Origin: a bacterium
GTDB taxonomy: Bacteria > SAR324 > NAC60-12
Assembly (NCBI GenBank): GCA_965233585.1
Contig: CBDDTI010000141.1
Span: 1 to 11,301 of the forward strand
Direction: 5' to 3'
Length of the DNA stretch: 11,301 bases
The notes under the pieces were generated by a model. The model saw only the letters and a program-made list of their open reading frames with translations. It had not been told where the DNA came from and did no database searches. This document shows, piece by piece, positions 576-9,159 of the stretch (positions are counted from its first letter, which is position 1; each line of letters begins with the position of its first letter). Both the position numbers and the translations under genes were made by a program.

Positions 576-866
576 TTCCCAGTTTGCCTCCGACACGACT
601 CACCGCTCACAACACAAGTTCAACAAGTGTAATGGTCACGTGGCTGCCTGTTCCTGATGGATATGTGCATGGCATTCTTCGAGGTTATCGTCTCTTATTT
701 AAAATAGACGAGGACAGGTTTTACCGGAATGTGACAACAGTCAACCAAGGCTTTGAGCTGACGGGACTTGAAAAGTTTACTAATTATTCTGTTAAAGTTT
801 TGGCATTTACTGGGATTGGTGATGGAAATGTATCTTACCCTGTTCTCGTCTCAACTGATGAAGATG
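576..866 (+). CDS. Exon A: FN3 domain 1
   Basis: ttcacag|TTCCCAGT ... GATGAAGATG|gtaagt; 291 nt, phase 1-1. PSLPPTRLTAHNTSSTSVMVTW...HGILRGYRLLF...LTGLEKFTNYSVKVLAFTGIGDG...VSTDED carries the FN3 W, Y and L-x5-Y motifs. Confidence 0.95.
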
Positions 867-1465
867 GTAAGTTACTAGCACATCTTCAGCATTCTCTGCT
901 TCGAGCGAGGACCTTTTATGCTTATTACACACACAGTAACCATTGTTGCATAAGTTTTCACATGACCAGTTTTATATGGAGAACAAAATACAACAGTTGT
1001 AAGTTTTACTTGGCAAGTTGGAAAACTTTCTTATTTTTACCGGGTTTAACAAAGAAAATTACTCAAGGAGTAACAATATCATATGACGTTTCGGGGATTT
1101 CTATTGTACAAGGAGTAATGCGGCTTCAAAGAAAATTCGCCGGAAAGCTTTTTTTATTAGGCTATGAGCAGACTGAACTTCAAAAAAAAAACTTGTTAAG
1201 CAAAACTTGCTCTCCGTTCACTCAACCAGATATAAACTGCCAAAGATACTTGATGAGGAAACTCGGTCGTGAATTTGTTGAGATGCTTTCTTGCATAAGC
1301 CGGCACTTTTCGGGTTGTTCTCTGATGTCATTCTCTAATGTTTAGTTAAAGCGAAAAATGCTATTCAAAATGCCCCACAAAATAGCTTACCATACCGAAT
1401 CAAGTTACTGGGTATTTGAAGTTGTCTTCAAGGTCTACTATATCGTATATTTCGTCGTTGCAGCT

Positions 1466-2788
1466 AGCTTTGCTTCAAGTGAAGTTTGAACTTCATACCA
1501 ATCTTAGTTGCCCTCATATAGGGGAATCCTTGTTTACACTATTTTCCTCATCAGCATAACCAAGAGATTATCAAGGTGAGAGAGTGAATCCCCCATATAG
1601 GTCCTCTAACTAAAGTAATCCGTCTTAAGTTATTTTTAGACATAGTACCTAGTTCTTCCGAGGATGTTACTCGCGCGATGCGTGGACAGCCGAAGCGACT
1701 TTCTCGAAACTACTTGAGAACAAATGGCGGGAGCGTCATTTTATATGTTTTAGTTTCGTTTCATTCCGGAGATGTTTTCTGCACTTTCAGCCGCCTTTTT
1801 GTGCCGCCGGGTTTTCGTGTGTTATTCTGCTCTTTTGGCTGTTCATTATTTTGCTGTTTGTTCGGTTTTAGGGAGTTAAATTAAGCAAACTTCAACTGCA
1901 ACGGCAACGAGTACAATGGCTGTGTAAGCGTGCGATATAATTCTCTGTTCATTTCTACGCCGTTGTTTACAAAAGTTCACAAAACAACAACGTAAAATAG
2001 CCACATTCTGTATATTTCAGTGAACGTCAACGTGAACTATACGACGGCCAATATTTAAAATTTCTGTCTCGAATTTTGAAGCTGTCTTACATTTTCTGTT
2101 TAGGATATTTCTGACAGCATAGCCGGACAAAATGAATGAATTCAAATTCTCGCGAGAGATTCGTAGGTTGAATAGTAAGTCGTTTTTTAATCGACGTTGT
2201 CTAGTTGGCGTTGTTATCGTTGCTGCTTAAGCCGGCTGCTTTTTGCTATTTGGTCAGCGAGCGTGTGCTGCACTTTCGACCATCCGTTTTTTCGGTTGCC
2301 TATCTTGTGTTTGCGCATTTGTTCGCTTTGCACTCGTTTGTCAAAACATTTCTCTGCCGTTCATTCAGTTGTTATTGTTTGAGCGGTGTACATCCGTCTT
2401 TTATTTGAACTCCCATTAAAGTTTCGCAATGTATTACAGCATACCGAGAGCCGAAGCTTGTAAGCTTGTAAGCGAAATATCAATGAAGACATCTCCACAG
2501 CATTAGAGGTTTCACCTTGCTTTGAAAGGAAACGAAATGAAACATAAACTGATTCTCTTCGAAAACATCCACGCAACGCGCGAGTAATATCCGCGGAAGA
2601 ACTGGGTACAATCACTAAAAATAACTTAAAAGGGATTACCTTAGTTAGAGGACCTATATGGGGGATTCACTCTCTCACCTTGATAATCTCTTGGTTATGC
2701 TGATGAGGAAAATAGTGTAAACAAGGATTCCCCTATATGAGGGCAACTAAGATTAGTATGAAGGTCAAACTTCACTTGAAGCAAAGCT
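1466..2788. mobile_element. Non-autonomous foldback DNA transposon with 221-bp TIRs (Mutator/MULE-like by TIR length and possible 9-bp TSD)
   Basis: 1466-1686 is the reverse complement of 2568-2788, with about 12 mismatches by hand count and only 2 in the outer ~150 bp. Flanks gttgcagct (1457-1465) and gatggagct (2789-2797) match at 7/9. No transposase ORF inside. Confidence 0.85.
1870..2232 (+). mobile_element. MITE (AGGGAG-T-TAAG family) nested in the foldback element; right end truncated
   Basis: Starts agggagttaaattaagc and ends gcttaagc. Shares ordered blocks with 4562-4937: caacggcaacg, acaatggctgtg, aaaacaacaacgt, cgtgaacta, aatcgacgttgtct. Confidence 0.75.
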
Positions 2789-3175
2789 GATGGAGCTACA
2801 AATAAACCAGTTCTGAATATTGAAAGGTCATAGTACGATTAACTCTGCCAATGAATATGAGCCTGATGTATTGAGTACTTTTTGTGCAATGCAGGTTTAA
2901 AAACTCAAAATTTTACAAAGAATATATGAGCTCATTAGCGCTTTCGCCACCCAGAAATTTTGCAGTTTTGAATGACAATATCTCCTTGAATGTTACACAT
3001 AAAGAGCTACGAATTTCGCCATGCATTAAGTTTTACTAGCTCTTTAGCTTCCTGGAGTCAATTCATATCTAGCATGTTTCTTTGTGTACGCAAAGACGTA
3101 TGCAAATGAGCATAAATGTAAACAATGACGTCAGCATGAATCCCCCTATTAAATGCACGGCTTTTACTAACGCAG

Positions 3176-3475
3176 TTCCAAGCCTTCCACCTCAGAACGT
3201 CAGTGGCTACAACAAAAGTTCCACCAGTCTCCATGTAAGCTGGCATGAGGTGCCCGATGGCTTTGTTCATGGTATTCTGCTCGGTTACCGCGTGTTATAC
3301 AAAGTCGCAAATGGAACAAGCAATAACAGCGTCGTTTCAACTTCAGGAAATACAAACGAAAAAGAGTTGGTGGGATTAAAGAAATTCATCATTTATGAGA
3401 TCACTGTGTTAGCGTTTACAAGGATTGGGGATGGAGCAAACGCTACTAGCATATTCGTCTCAACTGATGAGGACA
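3176..3475 (+). CDS. Exon B: FN3 domain 2
   Basis: ctaacgcag|TTCCAAGC ... GAGGACA|gtaagt; 300 nt, phase 1-1. VPSLPPQNVSGYNKSSTSLHVSW...GLKKFIIYEITVLAFTRIGDG...VSTDED. Confidence 0.95.
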
Positions 3476-4066
3476 GTAAGTCGAACGTAATCCCCCTTTA
3501 CATGTAGACAAGTCTAATTTCATGTCCAGATTCAACTGAATTAAATATATGCTCTTGTATTGTTAATGGCAGGTTTTAACTGCAGTTTTCTTAATTGCAT
3601 CAGGAAAAACTAATGGGCGATTAAGTCCGACTCAGCAATCGAGTGTCGCATAGGTTTGGAGTTTAACTATAAATGGAGACAAATACTTTCATCTGATCAG
3701 CTTAGGTTGTCCTTAAAAACGTTGCCGCGATGTAATAGATAGCAACTACTACCCAAAAGCTCTTTGTTAGTCAGTTATGTGGTTGGGCTTTCTTTAAATG
3801 AACCAGATAATAACTGCAATGAAGCTAACATATCAGAATTCTTTTCGAACCCCCACCCCCTTCCAGTCTCCAGTAATGCCATCTAATGCATTAGAAGCTC
3901 TTTCAGGTCTAGAAACAATTTTCTCTCAATTTCACCCGCTGTACATGTTTAAAAATAACGCCAACCCAAAAGAAGGAGTTCCTATCATAAGATGTTAGAT
4001 GAAAATTTTATTCATCCAAATTTCCTTCTCTTGTCACTGAATAAACAATTCTTTATTTAATTTCAG

Positions 4067-7868: not shown

Positions 7869-8244
7869 GAACCTGCAGATGTCGCTCCACGATTCCGACT
7901 AACTGGTGGAACAATCCTCCATACGTGAACTCACAACCATATAGCAACAGAAGCAAGGAAAGCGGTATCTTGCCAACCATACTTGAGTTGGCTGTTTCTC
8001 ACTGCTGCCAGGAGTGCGATGAGTTCGGCAGCACGACGATTGACTTCACAACTGATGCGAATGGCTTACAAGCCGAGAAAGATGGTGTTATTGAGGTTAA
8101 GGACGCCATCAGCACTAAAACTATGATTTCGTTTGGAATTGTTGGTGTAATGCCTCAGGAAAAGTACTATAGTCCTGACGGCATAGCGGAGTACGTGCCT
8201 TTCATGGAGACTCCGGGCGTGGCTTTTATCGTAGCTGAAAAGAG
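7869..8244 (+). CDS. Exon G: Cys-containing extracellular domain resembling the S1 lobe of a type II periplasmic-binding/iGluR ligand-binding domain
   Basis: ctttttccccttccaaag|GAACCTGC ... GAAAAGAG|gtgaga; 376 nt, phase 1-2. RTCRCRSTIPTNWWNNPPYV...SGILPTILELAVSHCCQEC...EYVPFMETPGVAFIVAEK. The exon itself is well supported. The domain call rests on motif resemblance (PPYV ... GI..IL ... PF...G..FIV). Confidence 0.82.
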
Positions 8245-8912
8245 GTGAGAGAACTAAAGAAAGTAATACACTGAATACGAAATCAACTTTGTACAAAGTC
8301 ATTAATTAATCTATAAATTGAACTAACGTATCCTGAAAGTTTAAATTTCAAAATAAATCTCGCGTTTTTGGAAGATGTAAGTGTAGATCTTTACCTGTTT
8401 GACATGGAAGTTTGCAAGATTCAAAATCTCACGTTTTAATTGTGGTAACGATCACTGAACCTCGACTATTTTCACTTAAATAAATGTGGCTATAAGTTAA
8501 TTTTCTTTTCCCCCCAATGCACTGCCTTCGTACACAGGTGGTCGCTCGTATTTAGCCTGCCAAATACATAAAAAAGATTAACTATCTTTTGTTTCAACCA
8601 TTGGCCCTTTCAAAATTACAAAATAAAAGCTTTTAAGTTAATGCTATCGACTACAGGAAACTCATCTTCACTGAAAAAACTTTAGGTGTATTGCGTTTGC
8701 AAGTAGTGCGCAGCTGTTCTTGATTAAAGCAGAGACAAATTCACACAAGAGGTCTTTACCCAGAATGGACGAGAGTGATTATCTTTTTAAAGAAACCGTT
8801 GGGCAACAAAACTGAGCTGGCAAGTGAAATAATTAGCTCTTTATCGTCCTGAAGTGGGTGAAGGTGAGTTGGCAAGTTAACTGTGTAGTCGTTCATCAGA
8901 ACAAAAAGAGAA

Positions 8913-8974
8913 GCTAACGCTCAAAACGTCAGCCTCACAAACTCGCTATGGCATTTAACTTACCTTTATCAACT
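8913..8974 (+). repeat. Decayed relic of a Penelope-associated hammerhead-ribozyme repeat
   Basis: gctaacgctcaaaacgtcagc ... tacctttatcaact resembles the cnidarian repeat CTGACGAAGGGCTAACGCTCGAAACGTCAGC...TTTATCAACT as I recall it. The catalytic boxes are mutated here. Confidence 0.5.
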
Positions 8975-9056
8975 TTATAAATTAGGATAACAAACACAAA
9001 AGGGATTGAACGAGCTCTTTCAAACTGTAAGACCTGCCTTGATTCGTTCCATGCAG

Positions 9057-9159
9057 AGATATTCACAAAGAAGTGCTACTAGCGATTCTAAGCTGTTGGC
9101 CTGCTGTCGTCATCGCTTGTATCATGACTTACGTGGCTGGAATTGTCGTGTGGGCTCTG
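9057..9159 (+). CDS. Exon H: transmembrane helix (pre-M1/M1-like)
   Basis: ttccatgcag|A GAT ATT CAC ... TGG GCT CTG|gtaagt; 103 nt, phase 2-0, matching the phase-2 end of exon G. Translates (R)DIHKEVLLAILSCWPAVVIACIMTYVAGIVVWAL. This is a different frame from the listed ORF 9006..9197. Confidence 0.85.

Follow-up and report, generated by a model that had tools for sequence, protein, structure and literature searches.

The stretch of DNA studied here (the window) is the whole of positions 1 to 11,301 of contig CBDDTI010000141.1, GenBank assembly GCA_965233585.1. Its plus strand carries eight exons, A to H, of a gene that joins a row of fibronectin type III (FN3) modules to the beginning of a receptor core of the type found in bacterial GluR0 and in the ionotropic glutamate receptors (iGluRs); as set out below, this gene almost certainly belongs to a cnidarian family of glutamate-receptor-type proteins with a potassium-channel filter. 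In such cores a ligand-binding domain is built from two halves, S1 and S2, and M1, M3 and M4 are membrane helices. The exons are as follows.

Exon A, 576 to 866, plus strand: FN3 module 1; phase 1-1; AG/GT borders; Pfam fn3 E 1.2e-13; matched by tblastn from the FN3 repeats of relatives
Exon B, 3176 to 3475, plus strand: FN3 module 2; phase 1-1; AG/GT borders; Pfam fn3 E 3.8e-11; tblastn matches
Exon C, 4067 to 4369, plus strand: FN3 module 3; phase 1-1; AG/GT borders; Pfam fn3 E 4.2e-14
Exon D, 5921 to 6223, plus strand: FN3 module 4; phase 1-1; AG/GT borders; Pfam fn3 E 1.4e-11
Exon E, 6420 to 6722, plus strand: FN3 module 5; phase 1-1; AG/GT borders; Pfam fn3 E 3.3e-13
Exon F, 7011 to 7322, plus strand: FN3 module 6; phase 1-1; AG/GT borders; Pfam fn3 E 1.5e-08
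Exon G, 7869 to 8244, plus strand: putative S1 half of a GluR0/iGluR-type ligand-binding domain; starts in phase 1, ends in phase 2
Exon H, 9057 to 9159, plus strand: putative pre-M1 helix and transmembrane helix M1; starts in phase 2, ends in phase 0

Results

Eight exons of one gene, joined in a single open frame

We read the exons on the plus strand, joined them by script and checked their borders for an AG acceptor and a GT donor; both were present at all eight exons, which together span 576-9159. The joined exons amount to 2291 nt, or 763 codons, with no stop codon among them. An earlier note on this stretch had listed these exons, claiming that the six FN3 exons run in frame into exon G and from there into a hydrophobic exon (H): its coordinates proved exact, the peptide strings that it quoted are present in the translations, and the splice borders and the open frame of 763 codons bear out the joining.

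Exons A to F each hold exactly one Pfam fn3 domain, every one of them above the 25-bit cut-off. Exon C also matches FN3_DSCAM-DSCAML_C (at 7.2e-05, below the cut-off of that family), and exon F, which adjoins the membrane-proximal part, is the most divergent of the six modules. At the joint between exons F and G the codon A+GA encodes Arg, directly 5′ of the T-C-x-C with which the family's conserved region starts; exon F ends in the matching phase, 547 nt upstream of exon G, and since no Met precedes the exon G domain, exon G is excluded as a first exon. The codon shared by exons G and H (AG+A) likewise encodes Arg, the donor of exon G being AG/GTGAGA and exon H being preceded by cAG. This junction is in frame, as the earlier note had said, with the small correction that exon G ends in phase 2 and that the shared codon is Arg; the phase 0 end of exon H at 9159 is also as it had described. 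A tblastn search with six relatives matched exactly these eight exons, and found nothing after 9160, before 542 or on the minus strand; this confinement of the matches argues that the exon pattern is not due to chance. In our reading, the window covers an interior part of a single gene.

Exons G and H match the part before the pore in relatives

An exhaustive HMMER search with exon G, in which relatives were counted at E<=1e-3, gave 138 relatives, 33 of them at <=1e-10 (individual relatives are referred to below by P numbers). By tblastn, exon G matches Nematostella LOC5515158 at E 2e-23 and exon H matches it at E 9e-08; exon H is 52% identical to residues 2023-2055 of P0007 (E 9e-08) and 57% identical to P0017; exons G and H taken together are 42% identical to LOC5515158 over 159 residues. 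In full-length relatives these two exons align with the segment preceding the pore, that is with S1 and M1, and the window agrees with 18 of the 21 strongly conserved columns (those conserved at >=80%). A hydrophobic segment is seen in exon H in a Kyte-Doolittle scan. The gene model P0017, which comes from another source, reads through the donor site that ends exon H, and therefore the position of this intron is shared.

In the profile of the relatives, the segment equivalent to exon G sits within a stretch which is colinear with the S1 of bacterial SBP_bac_3. This colinearity, together with structural models of relatives (described below), supports exon G as the putative S1 half of the ligand-binding domain, and the alignments support exon H as the candidate pre-M1 helix and M1. 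An S1 half-domain leading directly into pre-M1 and M1, which is a trait of the iGluR superfamily, is thus what exons G and H of the window present. The landmarks to which the earlier note had drawn attention (P-P-Y, the Gly that follows it, and the Trp of M1) are all conserved columns common to the bacterial channels, and the acidic residue that it had placed after M1 is the first column after exon H in the relatives.

Relatives have a potassium-channel pore after M1 and varied ectodomains

Fifteen long relatives of exon G were scanned against Pfam. Fourteen have fn3 domains, P0140 (from Hydra) having CUB and Ig domains instead, and in 13 of the 15 the G-like domain is immediately followed by an Ion_trans_2 domain that scores above its cut-off; no pore match was obtained for P0037, which ends 71 residues after the G-like domain, or for P0053. 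Lig_chan (PF00060; gathering score 30.8 bits) is listed in nine of the fifteen and is above the cut-off in three. The earlier note had named a phosphatase, a kinase or a tail without a pore loop as grounds for giving up its channel prediction; no phosphatase or kinase domain is listed for any of the 15. Nor do their Pfam lists contain a family of the ANF/LIVBP kind, and in the window six fn3 modules stand before S1 in its place.

The filter TT[VL]GYGD occurs in 20 of the collected proteins, and MTT[VL]GYGD is present in all 59 complete cnidarian cores. Thus, in relatives, the pore that the earlier note had predicted downstream of M1 is found where it was expected, with a filter near the motif that had been suggested. 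The core of the relatives has three hydrophobic helices and a P-loop, with some 150 residues between M3 and M4, and its order (S1-M1-P-M3-S2-M4) is that of the glutamate receptors; the predicted M3 and S2 lobe are represented by a helix and an S2-like segment after the pore, and a fourth membrane helix then follows.

The ectodomains of the long relatives combine FN3 with SEA, TSP1, laminin-G, pentraxin, MAM, F5/8-C, TLDc or fibrinogen domains and reach 4084 residues, and the family also includes short members, of about 470-510 residues, without any ectodomain. All 16 of these short members that were aligned match Ion_trans_2, Ion_trans and Lig_chan (the last listed at E<=1, the best at 2.9e-10; P0168 scores 38.4 bits). 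SBP_bac_3 is listed in one of the 16, at E 0.0037, below the cut-off and spanning both sides of the pore; P0081 and P0140, searched at E<=10, have no match to SBP_bac_3 or to Lig_chan-Glu_bd. In the ESM Atlas there is a cnidarian cluster of 181 members with fn3 (98%) and Ion_trans_2 (99%).

Some further observations on individual relatives can be given here. One CUB and one Ig domain stand before the same core in a sister clade, formed by P0140 and P0148-P0163, whose members come from hydrozoans, a scyphozoan and the coral Oculina. Kainate receptors obtain CUB domains in trans, from the Neto auxiliary subunits; in these relatives the CUB domain lies in cis with the channel core. In P0145 the core lies close to the N-terminus and over 1000 residues come after it; this may be a merged gene model. 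Among the short entries, P0009 and P0101 are open reading frame (ORF) calls which run from the end of the exon G equivalent into an intron of a close relative, P0101 ending in exon H read in another frame, and P0005 differs from exon G of the window mostly by Thr-to-Ile, Pro-to-Phe, Ala-to-Val and Ser-to-Leu changes, the pattern of C-to-T converted DNA. All three are short, spurious ‘proteins’ produced by calling ORFs on eukaryotic DNA.

The core of the relatives lines up with bacterial channels of the GluR0 type and models as a glutamate receptor

Bacterial and archaeal genomes were scanned with an alignment of 16 ectodomain-less relatives, giving 531 relatives among 567 pattern matches. In all three of the bacterial ORFs whose domains were scanned, SBP_bac_3 is split by Lig_chan and Ion_trans_2, as is typical of GluR0-type proteins. 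When the 16 ectodomain-less cnidarian cores were aligned with 69 bacterial ORFs of GluR0 size using hhalign, the match had a probability of 100 and E 2.9e-48 over 293 columns, and it ran across query positions 46-354 and template positions 41-347 of 375, beginning where S1 begins and stopping where S2 ends (S1-M1-pore-M3-S2). The homology to GluR0 which the earlier note had proposed is upheld by this colinear core, of which the window gene itself contributes only the S1-M1 part.

AlphaFold models were obtained for P0168, which has no ectodomain (pLDDT 81.2, pTM 0.63), and for P0081, from the FN3 clade (pLDDT 83.1, pTM 0.63, with values of 92-97 across S1). Searched with Foldseek against PDB, both models gave, among the matches listed, AMPA, kainate, NMDA or delta receptors throughout (E 4e-12 to 5e-10, probability 1.00, 436-549 aligned columns), so that, in keeping with the fold that the earlier note had anticipated, the cores of the relatives model as an iGluR ligand-binding and transmembrane domain. 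The ESM Atlas model of P0168 compares with bacterial SBP_bac_3+Lig_chan+Ion_trans_2 clusters at TM 0.57-0.75, normalised by the matched row. In the relatives, the models suggest that S1 and S2 together form the bilobed fold of type II periplasmic binding proteins (PBP-II; SBP_bac_3). A profile of 12 long relatives, run against PDB sequences, was swamped by FN3 and TSP1 matches, the top ones being PTPRF, PTPRD, PTPRS, titin and contactin; with the ectodomain-less profile the best 60 of 377 matches were K+ channels only, and sequence kinship to the solved iGluRs is not shown by that search.

A census of columns compared the 59 complete cnidarian cores with 69 bacterial cores. The two sets hardly differ in the pore, with its W-W and M-T-T-V-G-Y-G-D, or in the helix that comes next. 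The Trp and Gly columns of M1 are kept in 59/59 and 58/59 of the cnidarian cores and in 97% of the bacterial ones. An aspartate of S2, present in 93% of the bacterial cores, is retained in 57 of the 59 cnidarian cores, which argues that the ligand cleft is still used. S1 has cysteines specific to the family, as C-x-C at its start and as C-C-x-x-C. In M3 the consensus of the relatives is F-T-A-x-L-T-x-S-L-T, which is common to the bacterial channels; the motif SYTANLAAF, the gating motif in M3 of animal iGluRs, is not found in it (the window itself ends before M3).

The named relatives are cnidarian, and forms with ectodomains are nested among those without

All 26 relatives for which an organism is named are cnidarian, which agrees with the ‘probable cnidarian’ of the earlier note: the anthozoans Nematostella, Stylophora, Montipora, Oculina, Porites, Pocillopora, Acropora, Exaiptasia and Dendronephthya, the hydrozoans Hydra, Hydractinia and Clytia, and the scyphozoan Rhopilema. 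A quick IQ-TREE tree was built from the 59 complete cnidarian cores, exons G and H of the window, and 18 of the 69 bacterial ORFs (every fourth), with fragments and P0027, P0037 and P0053 left out. In it the window and Nematostella LOC5515158 are sisters (SH-aLRT 98) within a clade of 21 rows that bear FN3 modules (SH-aLRT 95), and this clade and the CUB+Ig clade form one group of 38 rows (SH-aLRT 100). The forms without an ectodomain branch below this group, and so the ectodomains appear to be later additions to a GluR0-like core. The placing of the FN3 modules on phase 1-1 exons fits exon shuffling. More boldly, one might suppose that the core reached the cnidarian stem lineage from bacteria, acquired M4 and afterwards took up adhesion modules by phase-1 exon shuffling; the tree contained no other eukaryotic iGluRs and is therefore silent on a bacterial origin of the family.

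Other features of the window

The introns and the downstream flank hold several repeats. In the intron between exons A and B, two 221-nt stretches (1466-1686 and 2568-2788) form an inverted repeat, its arms being 95% complementary and 881 nt apart, and this structure looks like a foldback or DNA-transposon-like insertion; the ORFs in its arms mirror each other on both strands and are not matched by any Pfam family. Two copies of a dispersed repeat, about 380 nt long, are also present: the one at 4559-4939, in the intron between exons C and D, has a perfect 14-nt terminal inverted repeat at its ends and looks like a miniature inverted-repeat transposable element, and the other, at 1870-2235, is a degenerate copy within the inverted-repeat element just described. 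Downstream of exon H, 55 nt past its donor, about 25 C in a row, interrupted by a single G, are followed by a short CA-rich tract (9212-9260), and at 9516-9666 a 26-nt unit is repeated in tandem (5.8 copies, 89% matches). A 100-residue open frame on the minus strand (9700-10002), which has no Pfam match, presumably resembles the C-terminal tail of the ORF2 proteins of retrotransposons without long terminal repeats. Short tandem arrays with units of 20 nt and 17 nt lie at 10270-10317 and 11127-11172, respectively, and further copies of the core of the 17-nt unit are found between about 10985 and 11175. Rfam at its gathering threshold and ARAGORN found nothing in the window, and Pfam found nothing above chance in its eight non-exon ORFs.

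Discussion

We propose that the gene is likely to encode a channel subunit of a family, seen so far only in cnidarians, which combines the architecture of a glutamate receptor with the pore of a potassium channel. The earlier note had described a chimeric receptor-channel in which an FN3 rod stands in place of the amino-terminal domain; our findings support this, with S1 and M1 in the window and the pore in relatives only. Judging from those relatives, the gene's own pore is very probably intact, and exons 3′ of the window would encode an acidic residue, a pore helix and the TT[VL]GYGD filter, followed by M3, the S2 half of the clamshell, the fourth helix M4 and a helical cytoplasmic tail. By analogy with GluR0 and the iGluRs, we lean slightly towards the view that the product works as a ligand-gated K+ channel: four subunits would form a K+-selective pore, the S1/S2 clamshell would close on a small extracellular ligand and, by pulling on M3, open the pore, and this opening would hyperpolarise the cell rather than excite it. 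The FN3 rod, taking the place of the amino-terminal domain, would most likely anchor or position the channel on matrix or on a partner cell.

Several observations weigh against this reading and are gathered here. The pore, M3, S2 and M4 of the window gene lie beyond the end of the window (base 11301), and neither of the pore motifs G[YF]G[DE] and WW[AS][FY] occurs in any of the six frames of the window, the earlier note having itself stated that the pore is not within it. Exon G alone gave only a chance-level match to Hen1_L in Pfam (E 0.11), one chance match among PDB sequences by phmmer (E 0.7) and none among longer proteins (220-2000 aa) in a word-indexed search; in the ESM Atlas it reached Lig_chan-Glu_bd clusters at 0.87-0.89, under the 0.9 line and so as a lead only. 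When an S1-only profile made from 114 short fragments was compared with the 69 bacterial channels by hhalign, the result was not significant (probability 1.1, E 0.051, 35 columns), though the alignment was in the right register. The assignment of S1 rests, therefore, on colinearity and structure and not on the sequence of S1 by itself, and the earlier note's view of exon G as a PBP-II lobe stands as far as colinearity and the models of relatives carry it, but gains no significant support from the exon's sequence taken in isolation. Lig_chan lies below the cut-off in six of the nine long relatives that show it, and P0053 has a degenerate filter and no Ion_trans_2 match. The TM-scores of the P0168 and P0081 models to solved iGluRs are low (0.20-0.48, with root-mean-square deviations of 9-19 Å), probably because the domains are differently oriented in the monomer models. 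A column which is Thr in the bacterial channels is Pro in 58 of the 59 cnidarian cores and Gly in the window (8117-8125, in the S-F-P motif of S1); the fragment P0003, 92% identical to the window, has the same Gly, and so the change from Pro to Gly is a lineage trait and not damage. The S1 column that is Arg in 88% of the 69 bacterial channels is Lys in 21 of the 59 cnidarian cores, Ser in seven, Met in six and otherwise varied, and it is Met in the window. This arginine holds the alpha-carboxylate of the ligand, and its absence argues against amino-acid binding in the manner of GluR0; we judge a standard alpha-amino acid, held in the way that GluR0 holds it, to be an improbable ligand. Finally, we found no report, in the literature that could be searched, of any member of the family being expressed or recorded.

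What opens the channel could be conceived of differently. The same protein might be opened or biased by attachment of its FN3 rod (to matrix or a partner cell, or by a pull) rather than by a diffusible ligand, the clamshell then acting as a mechanical coupler which would pass the attachment or pull on to M3, and the rod being a working part of the gate. This corresponds to the adhesion-, matrix- or force-gated channel put forward in the earlier note, and we regard it as speculative and unlikely. The non-conservation of the S1 arginine, which makes classical amino-acid binding doubtful, would suit such gating, as would the great size and variety of the family's ectodomains, their confinement to the one well-supported clade of 38 rows nested among ectodomain-less forms, and the passage of the last FN3 module into S1 without a linker exon. 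However, members without an ectodomain exist whose cores are equally conserved, so that the core presumably works without a tether, and the S2 aspartate kept in 57 of 59 cores suggests that the cleft is still in use; moreover, the N-terminal domains of animal iGluRs serve assembly and anchoring, not gating. It is also improbable, in our judgement, that the protein does not conduct at all, either as an adhesion receptor for which the core is a membrane anchor or scaffold, or as a pseudogene whose 3′ part is lost or degenerate. That no pore is visible in the window is compatible with this, the family is large with many paralogues, P0037 ends early, and the window departs from three of the 21 strongly conserved columns, one of them the nearly invariant Pro. 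Going by the degenerate, broken filter of P0053, non-conducting members of the family seem to exist, and P0053 may be one. Against such decay, the eight exons of the window are all open with intact splice sites, 18 of the 21 columns are kept, the Pro-to-Gly change is shared with P0003 and is thus not private damage, and a scoring pore is kept in 13 of the 15 long relatives.

That two adjacent genes, one for FN3 adhesion and the other for an ectodomain-less channel, were wrongly merged by splicing logic or by automatic gene models is very improbable. Ectodomain-less channel genes with their own signal peptide do exist, and the named FN3-bearing relatives are all automatic predictions from genome assemblies; yet exon G starts in phase 1 with no Met or signal peptide before T-C-x-C, exon F, 547 nt upstream, has the end phase that fits, and the same junction between FN3 and core is seen again in annotations made independently for Nematostella, Stylophora, Montipora, Oculina and Porites. 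FN3 and core also occur together in the 181-member Atlas cluster, and the contigs that bear relatives with CUB, Ig and core (767-876 residues) measure only 3.2-4.8 kb, which fits intron-free transcripts with ectodomain and core on one molecule. The idea that the gene encodes a conventional FN3 receptor of the LAR/PTPRQ phosphatase kind, with exon H as its sole membrane helix and a cytoplasmic signalling domain behind it, is close to refuted. It draws on the resemblance of the FN3 modules to those of LAR-type phosphatases, contactins and Dscam, on the profile matches in PDB to PTPRF, PTPRD and PTPRS, and on the naming of a likely relative as ‘PTPRQ-like-4’ in a table of the Nematostella matrisome (PMC12549020). 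But exons G and H align with S1 and M1 of the channel family, none of the 15 long relatives has a phosphatase or kinase domain while 13 have a pore right after M1, and even for the matrisome entry the best Swiss-Prot match listed is a potassium channel (PMC12549020).

A ligand-gated potassium channel subunit with an FN3 ectodomain, the reading that we prefer, can be set beside known systems. With the animal iGluRs (AMPA, kainate, NMDA and delta receptors) the cnidarian relatives share Pfam Lig_chan matches, and both models find their best structural matches among these receptors, in alignments that extend over the ligand-binding and transmembrane domains and take in M4; the relatives differ from them in a sequence identity of only 9-17%, a K+ filter instead of a Q/R/N-site loop, an M3 without SYTANLAAF, and no LIVBP-type amino-terminal domain. 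Like the LAR/PTPRQ phosphatases, contactins and Dscam, the window has one FN3 module per phase 1-1 exon, with V/I-P-S-x-P-P starts, but in contrast to the LAR/PTPRQ phosphatases the rod is followed (in relatives) by a channel core and not by a single helix and a phosphatase. GluR0 of Synechocystis is a prokaryotic glutamate-gated K+ channel (Chen et al. 1999, as cited in PMC12332018 and PMC12226733). The cnidarian relatives have the order of the GluR0 type (S1, M1, P-loop with K+ filter, second helix, S2), a near-identical pore stretch and the S2 aspartate. Unlike GluR0, they add a fourth membrane helix, which is the third hydrophobic one and lies about 150 residues after M3, and a long helical tail; their S1 has the family cysteines and lacks the conserved arginine, and their cores fall below the Pfam cut-off for SBP_bac_3. 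GluR0 has two membrane helices and no N-terminal extension, whereas one cnidarian clade has ectodomains of hundreds to thousands of residues, with at least six FN3 modules in the window. The rotifer receptor AvGluR1 (2011, as cited in PMC12332018), compared here by its description only, is likewise an animal receptor with the full iGluR topology, including M4, and a K+-channel signature in its pore loop; the cnidarian proteins have FN3, CUB and Ig, or nothing at the N-terminus.

In the relevant parts of a 2025 review (PMC12332018), only GluR0 and AvGluR1 are named as receptors with the K+ signature. A eukaryote-wide phylogeny of iGluRs from 2025 (PMC12226733) reports AKDF, NMDA and epsilon receptors in cnidarians, and the sections concerned mention no clade with a K+ filter. 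In the 2025 study of the Nematostella matrisome (PMC12549020, Supplementary file 1), NV2.13521 is listed as ‘PTPRQ-like-4’, an ‘adhesive protein’ that is Cnidaria specific, with a Kv channel as its best Swiss-Prot match, and the main text does not discuss it; going by its description in the table, NV2.13521 is probably a member of the channel family. Our search, for which full-text content of subscription journals and bioRxiv supplements was outside reach, found no description of a cnidarian glutamate-receptor-type channel with a K+ filter or of an FN3-channel fusion. In public records the relatives are called ‘uncharacterized’, ‘Kv subfamily A member 10’ or ‘putative potassium channel protein’. 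The family is present in public databases but, as far as we found, unrecognised as GluR0/iGluR-type channels with a K+ filter and an adhesion ectodomain, and it is of consequence for annotation, these names and the ‘PTPRQ-like’ listing of a likely member being cases in point.

The gene and its family bear on the evolution of glutamate receptors and on the physiology of cnidarians. Glutamate receptors are thought to descend from a bacterial binding protein fused with the pore of a potassium channel. The evidence for this origin, as cited in the part of the 2025 review that treats it (PMC12332018), comes only from bacterial GluR0 and one rotifer receptor. Here a large animal family keeps the K+ filter and already has the eukaryotic fourth helix, and it occurs in forms with no ectodomain, with CUB and Ig, and with very large FN3 ectodomains. 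This would provide a natural series for how M4, N-terminal domains and ion selectivity were acquired. It also bears on whether cnidarians have a ligand-gated inhibitory potassium conductance, and on whether adhesion modules can couple to a channel gate; if gating through the tethered FN3 rod were true, it would be a new gating class for channels of the glutamate-receptor fold and would give cnidarian cells a direct signal from adhesion to hyperpolarisation.

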